Positions 24,965-33,540 of a stretch of DNA of 64,000 nt are shown one piece after another (the stretch's first letter is position 1; each line of letters opens with the position of its first letter). This DNA comes from Naegleria gruberi. Lineage: Eukaryota. The stretch lies in assembly GCA_000004985.1 (NCBI GenBank), contig GG738897.1. The stretch is one strand, 5' to 3'. The position numbers were made by a program, and so were the translations under genes. Below the pieces are notes generated by a model. It was given only the letters and a program-made list of their open reading frames with translations. It ran no database searches and was not told the DNA's origin.

Positions 24965-27133
24965 ATGTCAAAAGTTGAATCTGTTGTTTGTATTACACTC
25001 ACAGATTTCCTAGAGAATGAATTGTATCATCAATTAAAAAACAAATTCTCATCACAAACGAAAGGTTTCGTATTGTGGGAATTAAACAAGGAAATTAGTT
25101 TGAAAGAAAAACAATTTCTTCCGATAGAATATTCTAAAGACAAGGAATACATTCAGAAATGTGCAAAAATTTGTGCTTCTCTCGATTATAGAAACAATCA
25201 ATTTTATAGCACATATCTTGTTAGCTCAATTTATCCGAAATTATTATTGGAAAGTTCAGACGAATTACAGAAATACAAATTGAGTGGTATTAAAAAATAT
25301 GCTGATCACCATTCGAATATTAAAAAAACAATGATTTACAATACGAATCCAGAAACTAGAGAGCTAGTTTTGCAAGCTGTCAAGAAAAATGGAAATGATT
25401 TGATGAAATATCAAAAATTTAATTCGGATAGAGAAATTGTTATTGCAGCAATTAGACAGAATGGAAATGGATTATTCTATGCTGGAGTGGAATTGAGAAA
25501 TGACAGAGAGGTAGTGAGAGAATCAATGAAGGTCAACCAGCATACTTTCTATTACATGTCTGATGAGTTGAAGAAGGATAGATCACTAGCTCTGGAAGCT
25601 GTCAAGGAAATTCCAGGATCTATCAGATATGCTCCTGGTGAAATCAAGAATGATAGATCGTTTATAGTGGAAGCTGCTTTATTGAATGGAAAAGTGTTGC
25701 AATTTCTAGATGGAGAATTTTTGAAGGACAGAGAAATTGTGGAGAATGCTGTATCTCAATACGGGTATGCTATTAAATATGCGCCAGAGGAATTTCAAAG
25801 AGATGAATCATTAATGCTAGGTGTTATTAGAAAGGCACTCAGTTTGGATTCAACAGTAGAAGTTTCTGACGATTTGATTTTGAAATATGTTAAAGAGCAT
25901 AATGGTGGATATTTGGCAATTAAATTGGAAAGATGTTGTAATGTAAAAGAAGTTATATTGGGAGCATTGGAGAATAATGGATCTAGATTGAATGAAAATA
26001 ACAAGAGAGAAAGAGAATTCATCTTGGACATGTTGAAAGAAAATTGGGAAATATTCGAAAAGGCAGACGAAAATATCAAGAATGAAAAGCAAGTCTATAC
26101 AAAAGCATTTGGTTTAAATTGTACATTTCTTGAAGATTCCTATAATTCCGAGCTATTCAATGAAATTTTAAATTACAGAAAGAAGATTCTTGACAGCTCT
26201 CCAGTTGGTAAGATCGACAAGGAAATTGCAAGCAAAATTGTGCACCAGAATTTTAATATTTTGAAAGAATGGAATATCACCAGATTAGATGATCAAATTC
26301 ATGAATACTTACACCATTTCAGCAGTGACAGAGATTTCGTGCTACAAGCAGTTTATCTAGATGAGAAATATCTTTCATTTGCTAGTGATTCATTGAAAGA
26401 TGATTTTGATTTCATGGTGACAATTGCACAACATACCCGTAACATGAGAGATGCATCTCCTCGTTTGAAATCAGATCCTCAATTTATCTTACGAGCATTG
26501 GATTATCTTTATGAATTGAAAGCTCCAAAGGAATTGAGAGCTGATAGAGATTTCATGATGAAAGCAGTTCAGAAAGGAACACATCTCTATCACGCCTCTG
26601 ATGATTTAAAGAACGATAAGGAGTTAGTACTCACAGCCATTAAAGGCAGCTACTCGAACATTTCACATGCTAGTAAGGGTCTTCAAAAGGACAGAGAATT
26701 TATTATTGAAGTTTTGAAAATTGATGGAAATTGTTTGAAATATTTGTCAAAGTCTTTCAAAAATGATAGAGAGCTAATTTTGACAGCTGCTCAATCTATC
26801 AATCCTTACATTGATTATGAGTTGTGTTATGAGCTATTTCCAACGGACAGAGAAGTAATGATGGAGTGTACCAAACAATATGGATACGAAATGATTCCTT
26901 ACAATAGCTATCTTAGTGATGAGTTTCGTTTTGATAAGGAATTCATGTTTCAAATTGCTGCTTCAAATAATTCAGCAACTTTGGATGTGTTTGATATATT
27001 TGGAAATGATAAGGATTTAATAATGAGATTGGCACTTGTTTATGGGCTTGTTCAAAAGTTTGATGAAGATATTTATCGAAAGAGAATAGAATTGGTCTTC
27101 AATGGAGTCAAATTACCAACAGATAAATACTAA
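24965..27133 (+). CDS. DUF4116-like repeat protein, 722 aa.
   Basis: ATG at 24965. There are more than 12 tandem units of about 37 aa with the pattern [NK]DRE[IVL]V..A[VI]..NG..L.[YF]A...L (for example NDREVVRESMKVNQHTFYYMSDELKKDRSLALEAVKEIPGSIRYAPGEIKNDRSFIVEAALLNGKVLQFLDGEFLKDREIVENAVSQYGYAIKYAPEEFQRDESLM). This matches the DUF4116 repeat I remember. Confidence 0.6.
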   Translation: MSKVESVVCITLTDFLENELYHQLKNKFSSQTKGFVLWELNKEISLKEKQFLPIEYSKDKEYIQKCAKICASLDYRNNQFYSTYLVSSIYPKLLLESSDELQKYKLSGIKKYADHHSNIKKTMIYNTNPETRELVLQAVKKNGNDLMKYQKFNSDREIVIAAIRQNGNGLFYAGVELRNDREVVRESMKVNQHTFYYMSDELKKDRSLALEAVKEIPGSIRYAPGEIKNDRSFIVEAALLNGKVLQFLDGEFLKDREIVENAVSQYGYAIKYAPEEFQRDESLMLGVIRKALSLDSTVEVSDDLILKYVKEHNGGYLAIKLERCCNVKEVILGALENNGSRLNENNKREREFILDMLKENWEIFEKADENIKNEKQVYTKAFGLNCTFLEDSYNSELFNEILNYRKKILDSSPVGKIDKEIASKIVHQNFNILKEWNITRLDDQIHEYLHHFSSDRDFVLQAVYLDEKYLSFASDSLKDDFDFMVTIAQHTRNMRDASPRLKSDPQFILRALDYLYELKAPKELRADRDFMMKAVQKGTHLYHASDDLKNDKELVLTAIKGSYSNISHASKGLQKDREFIIEVLKIDGNCLKYLSKSFKNDRELILTAAQSINPYIDYELCYELFPTDREVMMECTKQYGYEMIPYNSYLSDEFRFDKEFMFQIAASNNSATLDVFDIFGNDKDLIMRLALVYGLVQKFDEDIYRKRIELVFNGVKLPTDKY

Positions 27134-27829: not shown

Positions 27830-27951
27830 TTCTTCTCTTTCTACATTTTTTTAATTTTTGAATCTCGATAAATTTCTTTGGCCAACAAACAATGAAAGAA
27901 ATTATGTAATGTTTGTTCACGTTTCGCTTAACAAAATGATATGAACATGAA

Positions 27952-28022
27952 AGGGAGATAGTTCAGTGGTAGAACATGGGATTGTGGTTCCTAAGATCAG
28001 GGTTCGATTCCCTGTCTTCCTA
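27952..28022 (+). tRNA. tRNA-His (anticodon GUG), copy 1
   Basis: The sequence AGGGAGATAGTTCAGTGGTAGAACATGGGATTGTGGTTCCTAAGATCAGGGTTCGATTCCCTGTCTTCCTA folds as a cloverleaf. The acceptor stem is AGGGAGA/TCTTCCT with one G-U pair. The D-arm is GTTC-AGTGGTA-GAAC. The anticodon stem is TGGGA/TCCTA with loop TTGTGGT (anticodon GTG). The T-arm is CAGGG-TTCGATT-CCCTG and the discriminator is A. Confidence 0.8.
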
Positions 28023-28341
28023 CTTCTTTTTATAACTATTTGTACAAAGCTTGAATTTAATCTGCACTGTATAATGTTAATTTTGAATTTATATTAAGGT
28101 TCAACCAAATCTTGATACTTCCACACTCAACATTTCCAATATTACTTGGTGATTTTCAATTCTCTGTTTATGGTGCTCTGCATATTGGTTCATTTGTATG
28201 ATATTATTTGATTGATCACTTAAATATTACTTTATTAAGCTCATCAATCAAATCGAATATAGTATCAATTCTGTTTCATCATGATCGTGTTGTAATCATG
28301 CTAATTTTCAACAATTAATCAAACATGACAGCATTCTTCAA

Positions 28342-29972
28342 TTAAACCATGATATCTCCCTCCCTACGTTTCTTAACTTGTTCAATTGAATTTTCATTTG
28401 GGTCTTTTTTAATGAGTTCAGTAGTGTCCTCCATTTCAGTCTCGTCATCATCTTCATCTTCCTCCTGGATTGGGAAATGGGTAGAACTCACTTGTTGAAC
28501 TGTTACAGTCTTCATTTCTTGTTCAGATTCAGTGTACATGAAATAGGTCACACTCAACAAGACAATAATGCAACCCAATAATTGCCAAATTGACTTTAGC
28601 GATTCTTGCAAAATGAGACTACTGAAAACAATTGTTGAGATTAATCTCAAGGCAATTATAGAGCCAACTTTTGTAGATCCAAGCAAACCAATTGCAAGAA
28701 TATTTAAACCATTGGCCATCATGTATACTAAAATAGTAAATCCAAAGAACATGCCCCAATCCTTAGAATTCAATCGAGCCCACAAAGTCCAATCATCAAA
28801 TATTGCACTTGGCACAGCAAATATAAAGACAAGAATTAATAATTGATAAATGAATAGTTTCTCTCCAGTAACACTAATGGTATTTCCCTGAGATTCTTCC
28901 TGTTTCATATATCTCAAAGAGAGCATGTACCAAACAAGACAACAACTTGAAACTATACTTGATGAGATACCTAATACATCCCATGGTGTAATATTTTCAG
29001 AAATGGTATTAAAATCAATCTCAATTGTGATTTCAGTACATACACACCATCAGTTTTTGGAACAATACTTCCAATAATTATAATAGCCCCTCCTATAAAT
29101 GTAGCAATCATTGACAAGATTGCTTTCAATCCAAATGTTTCCTTAGTATGTGAATCTCTAATAAACCATCTGTTATAAACAAATACTGTTACAAAAGCCA
29201 GAGTAAATGGACTTGACAATGCAAACAATTGAACAAATAGTGGAATTGTAAATTTGGAGGCAACAACATTGGTAAATGATCTCCCCAACAATGCACAAAA
29301 GAAGCTAATGAGAGGTAATGAGAATTTAATCCACTTCTTAATCCTCTCGAATATAGACAATTTCATTACAACATGATGTTGAGTATTAACATTCATTCCT
29401 TCCTTGTTATTCTTCCTATTCTTCCACTTATTCCTCAAATAAACAATTAACAAGAAGAGAATTCTGGGAGAGTATAATAGAAGGGCAGCCATATGACAGC
29501 TAGTAACCAATAGCATGGGAGGAAACTTATTTGGAGATTGAGATTGCAGATACCTCGAAAAGATTGGATGTGTACCATAAAGTGTATGTACTGAAATACA
29601 TGCTAACCAACCCAACATTGATTTGAGTATGGGCATTGAATCTATTAGATTTGAAACTCTAGAAGTGAGAGATTGCTTCTCCCTCTCTTGATCTCCGTAA
29701 GAAGAAGAATTAGTGGATGTTATAATATTATCTTGTTCATCTTGCTTATGATGATAATGATGAACATAATCAATTGTATCATGATTCTCCTCCGATGATG
29801 AATTATTTAAAGCTTCATGTCCATTCTCCTTGCCTAATTCATACTGTTGTTGTGAAGGTGGTTTTCTTACTTGCAGCACCGACACTTCATCATTTTCAAC
29901 AACTGTTGTTGTGCTTATTAATAGTGATGATGATTCTTCGAGTGAATGTTCTAACAGTTGTTGCTTCGACAT
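28342..29972 (-). CDS. Multi-pass membrane protein, probable DMT-superfamily (EamA/SLC35-like) transporter. Two exons.
   Basis: Exons are 29972..29044 (ATG at 29972; ends at donor GTATGT) and 28957..28342 (acceptor CTCATCAAG). This gives an 86-nt intron with closing phase (...PKTDG-V-IVSSCCLVWYMLSLRYMKQ...). There are about 10 predicted TM helices in two halves, plus hydrophilic termini rich in acidic residues. The family assignment is tentative. Confidence 0.45.
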
Positions 29973-30133: not shown

Positions 30134-31861
30134 TTATTTCTTTTGCATAAGCATGTTATTTGACTTGATAAAGAAATCACCCTTATCGAATAACTTTAAA
30201 AGAATGACCAGAGTTTCCTTATCAATTTCGAAATTTCTCTCTGCCTCATCATTCATCATATTGGCACCATGATAATTTTCAGTGGCAAAGATGGAATCAA
30301 TATTGACATTGAGCAATGTTGAAACTTGCTCAATAACTTGTTTTTTGGTTTCTTGTTCTCTCACTTCATCCATCTTGGTAACAATCACCAATGGTTGATA
30401 TCCATATCCAAGAGATTCTTGATACATCTTCTTGAGCTTTTCAATGAGCTCTTTATCACCACGATCACCCTGAGCAAGGAAAAACAAGATACAGTGTACT
30501 TGATTTTCATCACACTTTTCAATTTGCTTTGTCATGATGGATTCACTCATCTCAAATGATTCTCCGAGAAGTCCACGTAACCAACTTAGGAACAGGGTTG
30601 GCTCAGTGAAGGTCTTTTCTGAAATTCCAAAAGAATCACCCAATAGGAAAAACAAATTGCACAATGTTTCATCTTCAGGAAAGATCTTGGAGAAGCATAC
30701 CTTTTCAAGACGTTTGGTAACATGATCACCTCCAGGAGCTGTAATTGCGAATGATGTGTGCTTGTTTTGTATAAAGGTTAATCCATGTACTAATGTGACA
30801 ATACGGTTGAAAAAGGATGATTTTCCAGATCCAATAATACCAAATGAGAAGATGTACAATTTTGAAACCTTACTTGATTTAGGTGGTCTATATTCTAGCA
30901 CTTTATAGCCAAAATCACTTGCCCAAAACTCAACATGACCCTTTTCGATAATACTAGAAGAGGGAGTTGTGATGGAATATTCTAATTCCTTGCAAATATC
31001 CCTAACAGTTGCACCATCTTTTGGATATAGCTCAATTTCAAAAGTTGCACTCGATTCAGGGTCAACACCAGACTTGGTTTTGAAAGTCTTACTATCGAAA
31101 TACGAGTTTCTATTAAATTTGATTACGGTCCCTGCTGGGATTTCCTTATCTGAATCATTTATGATTGTAACCATGATTTTTACATTCTCACCAATATGAT
31201 AGGGTCTGTTTTTGAGTGTAAACTTGATTCTAACAAAATCCTCATACTCTTTAGAAACAATTTCAGCTAAAGTTTCATTCAATTTGGACCATTCTTGGAT
31301 GTGGTAACCCTTTTGTGGTGAGATGGTTTGGATAAATGATTTGTCTATACCAGAGCCAACACCGATACAGCAAATGTCAACGTTGGCCAGCTTTAAATCA
31401 TTGGCGCGATTAATAGCTTCAATCTTGTCATCTGGAAAACCGTCAGTAAAGACGAAGAGGAACTTTCTTCTCTTATCTGTCATTTCATTCTTGATAATGA
31501 TCAGAGCTTCATTGAAGGCACCACCTAAATTGGTTCCTCCTCCAAGATTAGCAGTTCTAACCTTTGGCACTTTCTCAAGGATTGTATCCAAGTCAGAACA
31601 AACTCTTGCATGAACTGCACACTTGGAACTGAATTCAATAATGGTGAATTGATTGTCTTTGTTTTGTTCATGTAATTGTTTTACAACACCTCTGGTAGTG
31701 GAAAACATTTGACAGCAACTATCATCCTTCATAGAAGGAGAAGTATCCCCTAATATACCAACATGAACTGCTTCATGAGTCTTATCTGTTTTCTTTTTCA
31801 TTGGTCTGTCCCTCTTGGTTGAATCATTTTCTGAATATTCCACACGGTCTTTAGTATACAT
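30134..31861 (-). CDS. Fusion protein: N-terminal vWA domain with a complete MIDAS plus a C-terminal IRG/dynamin-like P-loop GTPase. 575 aa.
   Basis: ATG at 31861. The vWA domain shows VHVGILGDTSPSMKDD (DxSxS), GGGTNLGGAF (MIDAS Thr) and FVFTDGFPDD (MIDAS Asp). The GTPase domain shows G1 FSFGIIGSGKSSFFNRIVTL (compare IRG GETGSGKSSFIN), G3 LLGDSFG (DxxG) and G4 VIVTKMDEV ([NT]KxD). It is a single exon. Confidence 0.7.
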   Translation of the reverse strand: MYTKDRVEYSENDSTKRDRPMKKKTDKTHEAVHVGILGDTSPSMKDDSCCQMFSTTRGVVKQLHEQNKDNQFTIIEFSSKCAVHARVCSDLDTILEKVPKVRTANLGGGTNLGGAFNEALIIIKNEMTDKRRKFLFVFTDGFPDDKIEAINRANDLKLANVDICCIGVGSGIDKSFIQTISPQKGYHIQEWSKLNETLAEIVSKEYEDFVRIKFTLKNRPYHIGENVKIMVTIINDSDKEIPAGTVIKFNRNSYFDSKTFKTKSGVDPESSATFEIELYPKDGATVRDICKELEYSITTPSSSIIEKGHVEFWASDFGYKVLEYRPPKSSKVSKLYIFSFGIIGSGKSSFFNRIVTLVHGLTFIQNKHTSFAITAPGGDHVTKRLEKVCFSKIFPEDETLCNLFFLLGDSFGISEKTFTEPTLFLSWLRGLLGESFEMSESIMTKQIEKCDENQVHCILFFLAQGDRGDKELIEKLKKMYQESLGYGYQPLVIVTKMDEVREQETKKQVIEQVSTLLNVNIDSIFATENYHGANMMNDEAERNFEIDKETLVILLKLFDKGDFFIKSNNMLMQKK

Positions 31862-31916
31862 TTTTTTGCTTTGAATCAGTTTCTGAAAGGATCTTGTGGA
31901 GCTAATAATTATTTTC

Positions 31917-32046
31917 GAAACGTGCTAAAGCAACTTGATTGGTTACCCTTAAACGTGATTTTGTAATCAGATAATTTCAAATTGAAACGTGCCAATCTTA
32001 ATAACGTGATTGAATTATTCAGATTAAAATTATATTTCGAAACGTG
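31917..32046. promoter_or_regulatory. Cluster of five (A)AACGTG motifs in the divergent promoter between the vWA-GTPase gene (-) and the coiled-coil gene (+).
   Basis: The motifs are GAAACGTGCT at 31917, AAACGTGATT at 31951, GAAACGTGCC at 31984, TAACGTGATT at 32001 and GAAACGTGATT at 32037. All fall inside the 213-bp intergenic space 31862..32074. Three sit in the longer TTCGAAACGTG context. Confidence 0.3.
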
Positions 32047-32074
32047 ATTAAAATTTTCAATTATAAAAAATTGT

Positions 32075-33304
32075 ATGGAAAGTGTTTCTTCAATAATTTC
32101 ACATATATTTTGCTGTTCAAGAATGAAAAACAGATTCAAATCCTTTGAAGTGACAACAAACAACAATGGTACCCTTCCAAAGAACAAGACAAAACCTGTT
32201 AGGAACAATGCATATGAATCACCACACTACACAACAGTGCAATCAAAGCCAGTACCAATTATTTCAACATCTAACTATGGGGATAATAACATAGATCATG
32301 ATTACTATCCTTATAATCAATACAAAGAGAATAGAGATCAATCCATCGTAACGCCTAATCTGGTGGAAGAAATGGTTGAGAAAACAGTCAAATCACTCAT
32401 GAGAGAGATGATGTTAATTTTAAGTGATCAATCAGATAATATCAAGATAATGAATCAACATGCAGAGCACCATAAGCAGAGAATTGAAAAATTGGAGGAT
32501 CAACAAGTAATATTGGAAATGTTGAGTCAAGATAAGCTTCACTTGTCTAATCTTATTGCTGGTACATCAAAGGACATATTAGAAAAAATAATTGAAATTA
32601 AAAAAGATCAATCTGAGGAAGTAAGAAAGTTGCAACACTCAAATGAAACTGAAACAAAAGCGTTAGATACCAAACTTGACAAGATGCAAAAGTCATTGGA
32701 TGATGTTGTTGATGAAGTTAGGAAATTGGATGAAAAGATGAATAATCTCCACGTGCTTTACAGTGAATTGAAATTCAAAGGAAATCCATCCAAACCCTCA
32801 ATGCTTTCTACTTTTTTAGGGAGGGGAAAAGAGCCAGTTCAAAAAGAAACCAAGTTGGTAGCTTCTCAACCTTTCTACTCTACTGTTTCATTCTCTGTAT
32901 TCCCAAATTCTGGTTATGAAAAAGCAACTGATCAATTAATCAATTTGATAGGTGAACAATGTAATTCTAACCAGACCTATATCAATTTTAAAACCAAGAC
33001 CAAAATTGAAGAGTATGAGAATGGTGAAAAGGTTCTCTTCATTAGATATTGTGGAAGTACCAGATTTGAAAGTCCAGACGCAAGTGCCCTCTTGGAAAAG
33101 GGATGTAAAATTGTTTTCATCTTGTTGACTTATGGAGATAAGACCATTGATATCAAATTACCATCACAATTCCAAAGTTGTGCATTTATGCAAATTCAAA
33201 TCAATGGAATGTATTATCACAACACTCAAGATTTGGTTGGAATGCATGATCAAAAGCAATGCAAATTATTCCAATTAATTACTAGCCAATTTACAGAGCA
33301 ATAA
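32075..33304 (+). CDS. Hypothetical protein of 409 aa with a central coiled-coil and a C-terminal globular domain of about 150 aa.
   Basis: ATG at 32075. The heptad-rich segment runs roughly IEKLEDQQVILEMLSQ...VRKLDEKMNNLHVLYSELK. The C-terminal region (FYSTVSFSVFPNSGYEKATDQLINLIGEQ...KIVFILLTYGDKTIDIKL) is unassigned. Confidence 0.5.
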   Translation: MESVSSIISHIFCCSRMKNRFKSFEVTTNNNGTLPKNKTKPVRNNAYESPHYTTVQSKPVPIISTSNYGDNNIDHDYYPYNQYKENRDQSIVTPNLVEEMVEKTVKSLMREMMLILSDQSDNIKIMNQHAEHHKQRIEKLEDQQVILEMLSQDKLHLSNLIAGTSKDILEKIIEIKKDQSEEVRKLQHSNETETKALDTKLDKMQKSLDDVVDEVRKLDEKMNNLHVLYSELKFKGNPSKPSMLSTFLGRGKEPVQKETKLVASQPFYSTVSFSVFPNSGYEKATDQLINLIGEQCNSNQTYINFKTKTKIEEYENGEKVLFIRYCGSTRFESPDASALLEKGCKIVFILLTYGDKTIDIKLPSQFQSCAFMQIQINGMYYHNTQDLVGMHDQKQCKLFQLITSQFTEQ

Positions 33305-33375
33305 CCCTAATAAAATGTGATCTTAAATTCAAACTATATAGTGTAGATTAAACTTTTGCTTAATACATATAGTTA

Positions 33376-33446
33376 TAAAAAGAAGTAGGAAGACAGGGAA
33401 TCGAACCCTGATCTTAGGAACCACAATCCCATGTTCTACCACTGAA
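33376..33446 (-). tRNA. tRNA-His (anticodon GUG), copy 2. Identical to copy 1 but in inverted orientation.
   Basis: The reverse complement of 33376..33446 is identical over all 71 nt to 27952..28022. About 12 nt of 5' flank (AACATGAA) and about 85 nt of 3' flank (CTTCTTTTTATAACTAT..TTTAATCT.CACT.TATA) are also recognisably conserved but diverged. Confidence 0.8.
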
Positions 33447-33540
33447 CTATCTCCCTTTCATGTTATCTGAATCATTAAGGGATTATCTGTGAAAACAACG
33501 AATTTGTAATAGTGTTAAGGGCACATATATTACAGTCCGT

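Follow-up and report, generated by a model that had tools for sequence, protein, structure and literature searches.

A single gene of the free-living amoeboflagellate Naegleria gruberi, lying within a 64,000-nucleotide stretch of contig GG738897.1 (hereafter the window), encodes an N-terminal von Willebrand A (vWA) domain with a complete MIDAS, an Ig-like beta-sandwich and a C-terminal G domain, which on sequence comparison belongs to the IFI44/IFI44L family. The GTPase family is thus a known and poorly understood one, while its vWA/beta-sandwich architecture is new. The explanation that we favour combines this anatomy and family assignment with descent within the Heterolobosea and with a role as a ligand-gated assembly switch, and taken as a whole we consider it moderately probable.

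Anatomy of the gene and its product

The gene, its domains and its motifs are arranged as follows, with amino acid (aa) positions referring to the encoded protein.

30134..31861, minus strand: vWA / beta-sandwich / IFI44-type GTPase gene, 575 aa, intronless, stop codon included (from the list of open reading frames)
31247..31768, minus strand: vWA domain, aa 32-205
31733-31747, minus strand: MIDAS residues D39, S41 and S43
31520-31543, minus strand: segment containing MIDAS residue T110
31427-31450, minus strand: segment containing MIDAS residue D140
30902..31246, minus strand: Ig-like beta-sandwich of seven strands, aa 206-320
30272..30859, minus strand: IFI44-family G domain core, aa 335-530
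30806-30841, minus strand: G1, GIIGSGKSSFFN
30710-30730, minus strand: G2, GDHVTKR
30620-30640, minus strand: G3, GDSFGIS
30365-30385, minus strand: G4, IVTKMDE
30269-30286, minus strand: G5-position, ATENYH, passing the core boundary at 30272 by 3 bases
30140..30232, minus strand: long C-terminal helix, aa 544-574 (AlphaFold model)

The predicted N. gruberi protein recovered by homology search corresponds to the 575-aa reading frame at 100% identity and coverage, and an orthologue (P0002) is 63% identical, the vWA domain, beta-sandwich and G domain being equally conserved between the two (63-67%). The AlphaFold model of the full protein, built on a 150-sequence alignment, has a pLDDT of 90.6 and a pTM of 0.79; with a 2-sequence alignment the pLDDT was 33. 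No signal peptide or transmembrane segment was detected in the protein, which is probably soluble and cytosolic, whereas several relatives carry a transmembrane helix after the G domain, following the region of the C-terminal helix. This helix opens with a family-conserved 'ID' motif (I546, D547), of which D547 is kept in 23 of 24 relatives.

The N-terminal domain has a Rossmann-like vWA fold and over aa 36-196 scores 62.3 bits (E=8.9e-17) with the Pfam vWA profile (PF00092), whose curated cut-off is 23.8. All five residues of the MIDAS signature (D-x-S-x-S, Thr, Asp) are present, namely D39, S41, S43, T110 and D140; they are invariant in the orthologue and conserved in 20-23 of the 23-24 relatives compared, such that the domain is, as judged from its sequence, MIDAS-competent and has a predicted metal site. 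The original prediction of a vWA domain with complete MIDAS is therefore borne out by the Pfam search and by residue conservation alike, and the fusion of this domain to a GTPase is real, as the reading frame, the vWA match, the conserved G motifs and the confident model all indicate.

The two domains are separated by the Ig-like beta-sandwich, an element overlooked in the earlier description. In the AlphaFold model its strands occupy residues 210-216, 227-235, 246-249, 258-261, 270-278, 292-298 and 304-311, all with pLDDT >90. The sandwich aligns throughout the family, with conserved N, IP.G and YF positions, and in protist relatives always lies immediately upstream of the G domain; in Pfam it matches the ASH family faintly (E=0.062). 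The best Foldseek match of the model is ANTXR2, over 302 aligned columns, a protein in which a vWA domain is likewise followed by an Ig-like domain.

The G domain and its family

The G motifs follow one another in the canonical G1-G5 order, with G1 at aa 341-348, the switch-I Thr at 382, DxxG at 409-412 and TKxD at 495-498, and the modelled domain has the canonical b1-a1-b2-b3-a2-b4-a3-b5-a4-b6-a5 topology, with b5 preceding G4 and b6 preceding the G5 position. Across the family G341, G344, K347, T382, D409, G412 and G430 are near-invariant, and among these K347, T382, D409 and G412 are each kept by at least 23 of 24 three-domain relatives. The Lys of the TKxD motif is variable among relatives, which may therefore differ in nucleotide specificity, and the Asp of the same motif is lost in 5 of 24; the Ras-type catalytic Gln following DxxG is absent. 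By motifs and modelled fold this is a TRAFAC-class GTPase, predicted to bind nucleotide, and the claim that the C-terminal domain is a P-loop GTPase is sustained by the agreement of profile matches, motif order and model.

The family became visible only with a sufficiently sensitive method. In single-sequence searches of Pfam and NCBIfam the C-terminal part gave GTPase matches below threshold only, a 2-sequence profile of it matched nothing in the PDB, and a word-indexed homology search was insensitive here, returning 3 matches even with a 20-sequence profile. Exhaustive HMMER searching, by comparison, revealed 242 cluster representatives at E<=1e-3, with matches named 'interferon-induced protein 44-like' and one that is a TLDc-domain protein. 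Run against 1.84 billion proteins, the Naegleria profile matched P0046, which represents a fish IFI44-like cluster, at E=5e-13; in the reverse direction, an HMM made from animal IFI44-like sequences alone scored 63 bits on the Naegleria protein over aa 321-541. A protist-only version of the family profile (A5), with E-values set to the same database size, gave about 122 bits on fish IFI44-like G domains and on a mussel TLDc-G protein (P0155, P0148), compared with 37 bits for the family profile on the best septin (septin-9) and at most 19 bits on IIGP1 and GIMAP4. When 58 long members of the family were scanned, the Pfam matches comprised MMR_HSR1 in 18 (best 2e-14), Septin in 10, IIGP in 5 and AIG1 in 4.

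On these sequence comparisons the G domain belongs to the IFI44/IFI44L family, and by profile bits no other GTPase family comes as near to it as IFI44 does. The septins we read, on profile evidence, as its closest relatives of solved structure and not as the family of membership. Since its N-terminus consists of vWA and beta-sandwich with no TLDc match, the protein should be regarded as a member of the G-domain family and not as an IFI44 orthologue. The suggested kinship of the GTPase with animal innate immunity thus holds, albeit through IFI44-like proteins, whose profiles match in both directions. A literature search on IFI44 together with vWA, septins or protists found nothing relevant. We also considered the label 'paraseptin' for IFI44 and rejected it, the term having been found applied to Toc34/159 and AIG1/GIMAP with no mention of IFI44.

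Distribution and descent

The order vWA, Ig-like beta-sandwich and G domain is shared by no fewer than 22 sequence clusters. Among 160 sequences there are 25, including the N. gruberi protein, in which a near-complete vWA domain immediately precedes the beta-sandwich and G domain, and among the 58 long sequences the N-terminal modules are vWA in 25, EF-hand in 3 and zinc ribbon in 3, with TLDc in animals. Named three-domain clusters, all 'hypothetical', come from Heterolobosea, Amoebozoa, Aphelida and Glaucophyta, the named carriers being Pharyngomonas, Phalansterium, Amoeboaphelidium, Pelomyxa and Cyanophora together with an N. fowleri paralogue. The fusion was originally described as unusual; in the sense of unique this no longer applies, given its spread across eukaryotic supergroups, but the accompanying remark, that no characterised vWA-N/IRG-C fusion was known, is borne out to the extent that no member of the family has been characterised. 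Database labels for the relatives read only 'VWFA domain-containing' or 'hypothetical'. At least one gene model, from N. fowleri, appears to splice out the P-loop.

In a distance (neighbour-joining) tree, which is star-like and carries no support values, the Naegleria proteins lie next to those of Pharyngomonas and the animal sequences form one cluster amid protist sequences. The grouping of Naegleria with another heterolobosean fits vertical descent, and the sequence data as a whole fit a protein vertically inherited within Heterolobosea and belonging to a patchily spread, uncharacterised eukaryotic family. No prokaryotic relative was found in a scan of 185,579 species genomes with a single protein, which sees close relatives only; likewise, a scan of viral contigs and a tblastn search of phages yielded no relatives, and PADLOC returned only a marginal PDC-M38B match (E=1e-3). 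With no prokaryotic, viral or phage relatives found, the proposed lateral origin is unsupported, and no MoxR-type AAA+ partner was found such as a counterpart of the prokaryotic vWA-NTPase systems would possess.

The shared promoter and the partner gene

The gene is one half of a divergent pair.

31862..32074, strand not assigned: divergent promoter region common to both genes, holding five copies of (A/T)AACGTG
31919, 31952, 31986, 32003 and 32041, all plus strand: the (A/T)AACGTG copies
32075..33304, plus strand: partner gene, 409 aa, coiled coil in the centre, conserved domain at the C-terminus (aa ~265-409)
27944..28083, plus strand: left arm of an inverted duplication, with tRNA-His(GTG) at 27952-28023 (ARAGORN)
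33325..33464, minus strand: right arm of the inverted duplication, with tRNA-His(GTG) at 33385-33456 (ARAGORN)

Of the 16 AACGTG copies in the whole window, 5 fall within a span of 130 bp in the shared promoter. The orthologous intergenic region of another Naegleria species (contig L001) has 6 copies within 130 bp, and over its full 3.4 kb this contig carries 8 where 0.47 would be expected; none of 200 shuffles reached 8. On the same contig the orthologue of the partner gene (54% identity, E=7e-130) is again head-to-head with that of the vWA-GTPase gene, such that both the gene pair and the AACGTG cluster are conserved in another Naegleria species, and the bidirectional AACGTG-rich promoter that had been proposed is real. 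A public 393-aa version of the partner (P0166) covers 96% of its reading frame. The partner protein, its C-terminal domain included, matched no Pfam family, and the only relatives found were from Naegleria; it is probably co-expressed with the vWA-GTPase, of which it may be a co-factor or a client. The arms of the inverted repeat are 140 nt long and 91% complementary.

A proposed ligand-gated assembly switch and its alternatives

By analogy with integrin I-domains, ANTXR and TRAP, the MIDAS of the vWA domain would hold a divalent cation and capture an acidic side chain of a protein ligand. The G domain would bind GTP by means of its intact P-loop, switch-I Thr, DxxG and TKxD motifs and, as in septins, GIMAPs and Toc34, would probably cycle through homodimers or oligomers formed across the G interface in a nucleotide-dependent manner, a mode of cycling that the lack of a Ras-type catalytic Gln also makes probable. 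Ligand capture and GTP-driven assembly could then be coupled through the rigid beta-sandwich spacer, the whole acting as a ligand-gated assembly switch. The antiviral effect of human IFI44 is, however, reportedly independent of its GTP-binding motif, and catalysis by the G domain may consequently not be central in this family.

The domain had originally been read as an IRG/IIGP- or dynamin-like immunity GTPase joined to a vWA domain, possibly as a laterally acquired counterpart of prokaryotic vWA-NTPase conflict systems. Its G1 (GxxGSGKSSFxN) and G4 (TKxD) do resemble the motifs of IIGP1, the IIGP matches of five relatives are of the same tenor, if weak, and the family profile reaches IIGP1 and Irgb10 at E=3e-3 to 1e-2. 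These alignments, however, involve profile positions ~100-151 only (to 212 for Irgb10), that is, the P-loop region in the case of IIGP1, whereas the alignment with septins runs from G1 to beyond G4 and that with IFI44-like proteins spans the entire domain; moreover, the protein itself matches neither Pfam IIGP (PF05049) nor Dynamin_N (PF00350) at E<=10, and no dynamin occurs among the best 60 of 244 PDB matches at E<=10. Together with the negative scans for prokaryotic, phage and viral relatives, the occurrence of relatives in several eukaryotic supergroups and the position beside Pharyngomonas, these results largely refute this reading already, and we regard it as extremely improbable. It is very doubtful, too, that the G domain is an inert nucleotide-binding pseudo-GTPase, or an ATP-specific one, serving as a structural module only: the degeneracy of G4 in many relatives and the missing catalytic Gln are what such a module might display, but the N. 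gruberi protein and its orthologue share intact, unchanged G1, G2 and G3 motifs and a canonical TKMD, and the near-universal conservation of Lys347, Thr382, Asp409 and Gly412 noted above implies that nucleotide and Mg2+ binding, as well as the switches, are under selection.

Two further readings concern the role of the assembly. The protein could be a constitutive, septin-like scaffold of membranes, the cytoskeleton or trafficking, unrelated to conflict, in which the vWA domain assembles a stable complex; this we think somewhat unlikely, as the patchy phyletic distribution argues against a core housekeeping role and the protein itself has no Pfam Septin match at E<=10. Alternatively, it could serve cell-autonomous defence as a representative of the pre-metazoan ancestral type of IFI44, the vWA, EF-hand or TLDc module acting as sensor or adaptor and G-domain assembly as the response to viral or bacterial attack. 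Such a role would accord with the homology of the G domain to interferon-induced IFI44/IFI44L, with the exchange of N-terminal modules on a constant G module, with a patchy distribution that includes lineage-specific paralogues, with the transmembrane anchoring of some relatives after the G domain (GIMAPs, which are tail-anchored, and Toc34 have a similar anchor) and with the repeated promoter cis-element, which suggests inducible control. Against it, the neighbours are ordinary eukaryotic genes with no immune-gene cluster, the gene is single-copy within the window, the two orthologues are evenly conserved across domains with no hypervariable sensor, and the mechanism of IFI44 itself is unresolved (PMC6712396); we therefore regard a defence role as unlikely.

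Significance

Few interferon-stimulated genes are induced as consistently as IFI44 and IFI44L, and both serve widely as clinical biomarkers, yet their biochemistry is obscure. The Naegleria protein and its relatives show the IFI44 G domain to be a genuine member of the TRAFAC GTPases, to which septins come closest by sequence profile among proteins of solved structure. It has deep relatives across eukaryotic supergroups, and in protists it is as a rule fused to a MIDAS vWA domain via a conserved beta-sandwich. The function of the IFI44 G domain can thereby be approached within an evolutionary setting and in tractable systems outside the animals, and the findings suggest a testable logic for the family, in which a ligand-binding adaptor module is combined with an assembling GTPase. 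A more extended scenario would derive IFI44/IFI44L from ancient pan-eukaryotic sensor-coupled GTPases, with vWA(MIDAS)/beta-sandwich/G maybe the older layout; the protist forms would be cell-autonomous defence or stress switches, in which MIDAS capture of a foreign or damage-derived ligand leads to GTP-dependent assembly, co-induced with the lineage-specific coiled-coil partner via the ACGTG-core element. In its entirety we judge this scenario decidedly unlikely.

Comparison with known systems

The prokaryotic vWA-MoxR ternary conflict systems are multi-gene operons in which a MoxR AAA+ ATPase is accompanied by vWA and effector proteins as separate products (Kaur et al. 2020, PMC7159879), whereas the Naegleria protein is a single polypeptide with no AAA+ domain, and the scan of prokaryotic genomes for close relatives found no homologue of its beta-sandwich-plus-G module. 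Another parallel is cpRAS-VWA, a eukaryotic fusion of GTPase and vWA of unknown function and highly scattered distribution, N. gruberi included (Elias and Novotny 2008, PMC2430557). These proteins, of 840-970 aa, have an N-terminal Ras-type GTPase that is circularly permuted (G3-G4-G5-G1-G2) and a C-terminal vWA domain of the Sec23/24-trunk type (PMC2430557). The present protein has the vWA domain first and then an IFI44-type G domain with canonical G1-G5. Identity with cpRAS-VWA is thus ruled out by the C-terminal location of the G domain and its unpermuted motif order.

The likeness to IRG/IIGP1 and dynamin is at the level of motifs only (P-loop G1 and TKxD G4). Helical domain, middle domain and GED serve as criteria for these families, the last two for dynamins. 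No stretch of the Naegleria protein is matched by a dynamin-family or IIGP model, and its G domain of ~200 aa is followed by a single helix.

With IFI44 and IFI44L the homology extends over the whole length of the G domain and includes GxxGxGKSSFxN, the switch-I Thr, D-x-x-G, an L-x-G loop, (V/I)HC(I/V), a TKxD-type G4 and NY. The difference lies at the N-terminus, which in IFI44 and IFI44L is TLDc, and the animal IFI44-like matches cover the G part of the profile only, from position ~115; Naegleria, moreover, has no interferon system. Among proteins of solved structure the best profile matches are SEPT9 (E=9.7e-9), SEPT3 and SEPT12, and Toc34 and GIMAP4 are matched by the family profile at ~1e-3 to 5e-3. 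The Naegleria protein itself matches neither Pfam Septin (PF00735) nor AIG1 at E<=10, and the family-specific motifs HVT, WDTWG, LxGxxPxG, IHxV, NY and ID are not septin motifs. What septins, GIMAPs and Toc34 likely have in common with the vWA-GTPase family, by analogy, is nucleotide-dependent dimerisation.

The gene and its product

The gene that the original prediction described as a von Willebrand A (vWA) domain fused to an IRG/dynamin-like GTPase lies exactly where it had been placed, in a window with a GC content of about 33%, and its translation contains all the motifs that had been quoted.

Gene and sequence motifs of the vWA-GTPase protein
30134..31861, minus strand: vWA-GTPase gene from the ORF list, ATG start, 575 aa
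aa 39-43: DTSPS (MIDAS)
aa 107-114: GGGTNLGG (MIDAS Thr)
aa 138-145: FTDGFPDD (MIDAS Asp)
aa 341-352: GIIGSGKSSFFN (G1)
aa 495-498: TKMD (G4)

Since the ORF matches the NCBI/UniRef 'predicted protein [Naegleria gruberi]' (P0001) with 100% identity over the full length, the deposited gene model is this same uninterrupted ORF and the window is nuclear DNA of N. gruberi. In the 572-aa orthologue P0002, which comes from a Naegleria-like sample (Logan run SRR25266757) and is 63% identical, all five motifs are invariant, as are 'APGGDHVTKR' (switch I) and 'GDSxG' (G3), and conservation is even across the three domains, at 63-67%. Neither a signal peptide nor a transmembrane (TM) segment was found in the vWA-GTPase protein.

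The vWA domain and an adjoining beta-sandwich

The N-terminal vWA assignment is solid: the match to Pfam VWA (E=8.9e-17) clears the gathering score by a wide margin, VWA_2 and VWA_3 match too, and the AlphaFold2 model, built from a 150-sequence alignment, is confident (mean pLDDT 90.6, pTM 0.79), packing three domains together with disorder limited to aa 1-27 and 533-535. Conservation of the MIDAS residues extends to 24 relatives with all three domains (D39 and S41 each 23/23, S43 22/23, T110 20/24, D140 21/24), such that selection on the predicted metal site is visible family-wide. The middle domain, which had been overlooked, is modelled as a seven-stranded beta-sandwich (aa 206-320, pLDDT >90), alignable throughout the family via conserved N, IP.G and YF positions, its lone known-family signal in Pfam being a faint ASH match (E=0.062). 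The top Foldseek match is ANTXR2, with 302 aligned columns, a protein in which an Ig-like domain likewise follows the vWA domain.

A G domain of the IFI44 family

As a single sequence, the C-terminal domain gives sub-threshold matches only (RsgA 0.11, EF-Tu 0.25, Era 0.005), with no Pfam match to IIGP or Dynamin_N at E<=10. When a profile of aa 200-575, made from the two Naegleria sequences, was run exhaustively with HMMER against 1.84 billion cluster representatives, 242 proteins were retrieved at E<=1e-3, 74 of them at E<=1e-10. Near-invariant in 150 relatives are G341, G344 and K347 of the P-loop, T382 of switch I, D409 and G412 of DxxG, and G430, while Pfam applied to 58 long sequences (57 relatives and the vWA-GTPase protein) recovers MMR_HSR1 in 18 (best 2e-14), Septin in 10, IIGP in five and AIG1 in four. 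Strands and helices of the model follow the canonical order b1-P-loop-a1-b2-b3-a2-b4-a3-b5-a4-b6-a5, in which TKMD follows b5 and 'ATENY' follows b6. The near-invariant G motifs, the Pfam matches of the relatives and this order together identify the domain, by sequence and predicted fold, as a TRAFAC-type G domain. A marginal PADLOC match to the defence-candidate model PDC-M38B (E=1e-3; aa ~470-553, 30203-30454), over the G4/G5 region, is too weak to interpret.

Several of the relatives are animal proteins: the P0046 cluster bears the name 'interferon-induced protein 44-like' (Scleropages); P0148, from a mussel, contains a TLDc domain and thus has the IFI44 architecture; and P0057 and P0115, from fish and lizard, are uncharacterised and have G domains in tandem. 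An HMM made from animal IFI44-like G domains only scores 63 bits against the vWA-GTPase protein (aa 321-541), the two having in common the P-loop, the switch-I Thr, DxxG, an L-x-G loop, a (V/I)HC(I/V) strand, a TKxD-type G4 and NY; reciprocally, a protist-only profile scores ~122 bits over the whole of single G domains in the fish IFI44-like protein P0155 and in P0148. When a 20-sequence form of the latter profile was run against all PDB sequences, septins matched best, SEPT9 (37 bits, E=9.7e-9) being followed by SEPT3 and SEPT12, aligned from G1 to beyond G4. RsgA/EngC matched in the P-loop only, Toc34 at ~1e-3, IIGP1 at ~3e-3 (P-loop only) and GIMAP4 at ~5e-3, and no dynamin was among the 60 best of 244 matches. 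The two-way profile scores and the PDB matches thus place the G domain, at the level of sequence, in the IFI44/IFI44L family, with septins as its nearest solved relatives, and give no support to an IRG or dynamin assignment.

Distribution and domain architectures

We examined 160 sequences: the vWA-GTPase protein itself, the top hits and further members of their clusters. In 25, the query included, a near-complete vWA domain directly precedes the beta-sandwich and G domain, and the spacing is the same; nine further sequences carry a partial vWA and are probably fragments. Named three-domain members, all annotated 'hypothetical', occur in Pharyngomonas kirbyi (Heterolobosea, two paralogues), Phalansterium solitarium and Pelomyxa schiedti (Amoebozoa), Amoeboaphelidium protococcarum (Aphelida) and Cyanophora paradoxa (Glaucophyta), a spread which removes the supposed uniqueness of the fusion. 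A 442-aa N. fowleri paralogue, P0167 (KAF0984064.1 / XP_044568777.1; 31% identity), is annotated just 'VWFA domain-containing protein'. The N-terminal half of the vWA is missing from its gene model and a gap of 34 aa falls precisely on the P-loop; the model is probably a mis-prediction that hides the GTPase.

In other family members the Pfam scan found EF-hands or zinc ribbons in place of the vWA. Nine members (P0007, P0092, P0097, P0042, P0068, P0125, P0129, P0080 and P0138) have a TM-like hydrophobic helix 20-40 aa past the G domain, and part of the family would therefore be membrane-anchored. Some of these nine also have signal-peptide-like N-termini, a topology that would, oddly, leave the G domain lumenal or extracellular. 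A neighbour-joining tree of G domains, star-like and without support values, gathers the animal IFI44-like sequences into one cluster amid protist sequences, disperses the vWA-bearing forms throughout and sets the Naegleria proteins beside Pharyngomonas. Close-relative scans of prokaryotic species genomes, viral contigs and phage records found no relatives, and the suggested lateral origin is not upheld. As a side observation, P0003 (Logan contig, 686 aa), a distant vWA match (E=1.5e-6), joins Hsp70 (PF00012) to a C-terminal vWA and is another unusual NTPase-vWA fusion.

The divergent partner and its neighbourhood

Features around the vWA-GTPase gene
24965-27133, plus strand: DUF4116-repeat protein, 722 aa, 12 repeats (Pfam E=2e-106)
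27944-28083 and 33325-33464: arms of a tRNA-His(GTG) inverted duplication, 140 nt, 91% complementary
31862-32074: shared bidirectional promoter, 213 bp, between the vWA-GTPase and partner genes
32075-33304, plus strand: coiled-coil partner gene, 409 aa, head-to-head with the vWA-GTPase gene

The partner combines a coiled coil with a strongly conserved C-terminal domain of ~145 aa (VLFIRYCGSTRFESPDASALLEKGCKIVFIL...) that has no Pfam family, and relatives of it are detectable in Naegleria only; 96% of the ORF is covered by a public version of 393 aa (P0166, ENA). Of the 16 (A/T)AACGTG copies in the 64-kb window, five, all in one orientation, fall in the intergenic region, rightly predicted to be an AACGTG-rich bidirectional promoter, and TTCGAAACGTG contains two of these five. 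On L001, the 3.4-kb contig that carries the orthologue in another Naegleria species, the pair recurs in head-to-head arrangement with 54% identity between the partners (E=7e-130), and six AACGTG copies lie in the intergenic region (L001 1454-1580); the contig total of eight, against 0.47 expected, was reached in 0/200 shuffles. Conservation of both the gene pair and the repeated element points to co-regulation; the AACGTG cluster, with its ACGTG core, may be a conserved binding site for a transcription factor.

Each tRNA-His arm consists of the tRNA and ~60 nt of flank, and between the arms lie the coiled-coil gene, the vWA-GTPase gene and the transporter. Of a second and weaker inverted repeat (28153-28244 / 32399-32490; 92 nt at 82%), one arm falls within the coiled-coil gene. 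Two adjacent minus-strand ORFs ~44 nt apart, 28342-28926 (the downstream one, an EamA transporter match) and 28971-29972 (upstream, hydrophobic), probably belong to a single transporter gene interrupted by a short intron. Besides this transporter and the DUF4116-repeat protein, the neighbours are equally ordinary (saccharopine-dehydrogenase-like, MT-A70, RCC1-like and LRR proteins), and the 64-kb window holds no second family member.

A possible mode of action

With the MIDAS and G1, G2 and G3 intact and conserved, and a canonical TKMD in the vWA-GTPase protein, a mechanism can be proposed by analogy. The MIDAS cation could be completed by a protein ligand offering an acidic side chain, in the manner of integrin I-domains, ANTXR and TRAP. 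Septins, GIMAPs and Toc34 are GTPases activated by nucleotide-dependent dimerisation; because these are the nearest relatives, and because the G domain lacks a Ras-type catalytic Gln after DxxG, it probably cycles via GTP-dependent homodimerisation or oligomerisation. The fusion would then couple ligand capture to assembly, and the exchange of vWA, EF-hand and TLDc modules at the N-terminus of an otherwise constant G module is in keeping with such adaptor and assembling-GTPase logic.

As to the process served, the candidates are defence, which is rated unlikely, a conditional stress response, and constitutive organisation of membranes or the cytoskeleton, also rated unlikely but slightly less so.

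Relation to known systems

Overall, the original prediction was right in its observation, in the reality of an uncharacterised fusion and in a link to an animal immunity gene, and wrong as to GTPase family, uniqueness and, as far as the close-relative scans reach, lateral origin. Within a known but poorly understood GTPase family the protein stands as a new architectural variant or a subfamily, with the corollary that G domains of the IFI44 type are old and occur widely among eukaryotes. This deep connection should be useful to specialists in ISGs or GTPase evolution, and makes IFI44 biochemistry approachable in new systems.

The animal IFI44-like proteins P0014, P0046, P0057 and P0115 (mussel, fish, lizard) carry two to four tandem G domains per polypeptide, reminiscent of multi-G-domain GIMAP8 (PMC4201521). 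No description of the vWA, beta-sandwich and IFI44-type G architecture was found in the literature searched, and the cpRAS-VWA proteins of Naegleria, in which a permuted Ras domain is N-terminal and a Sec23-type vWA C-terminal, represent a different fusion (PMC2430557).
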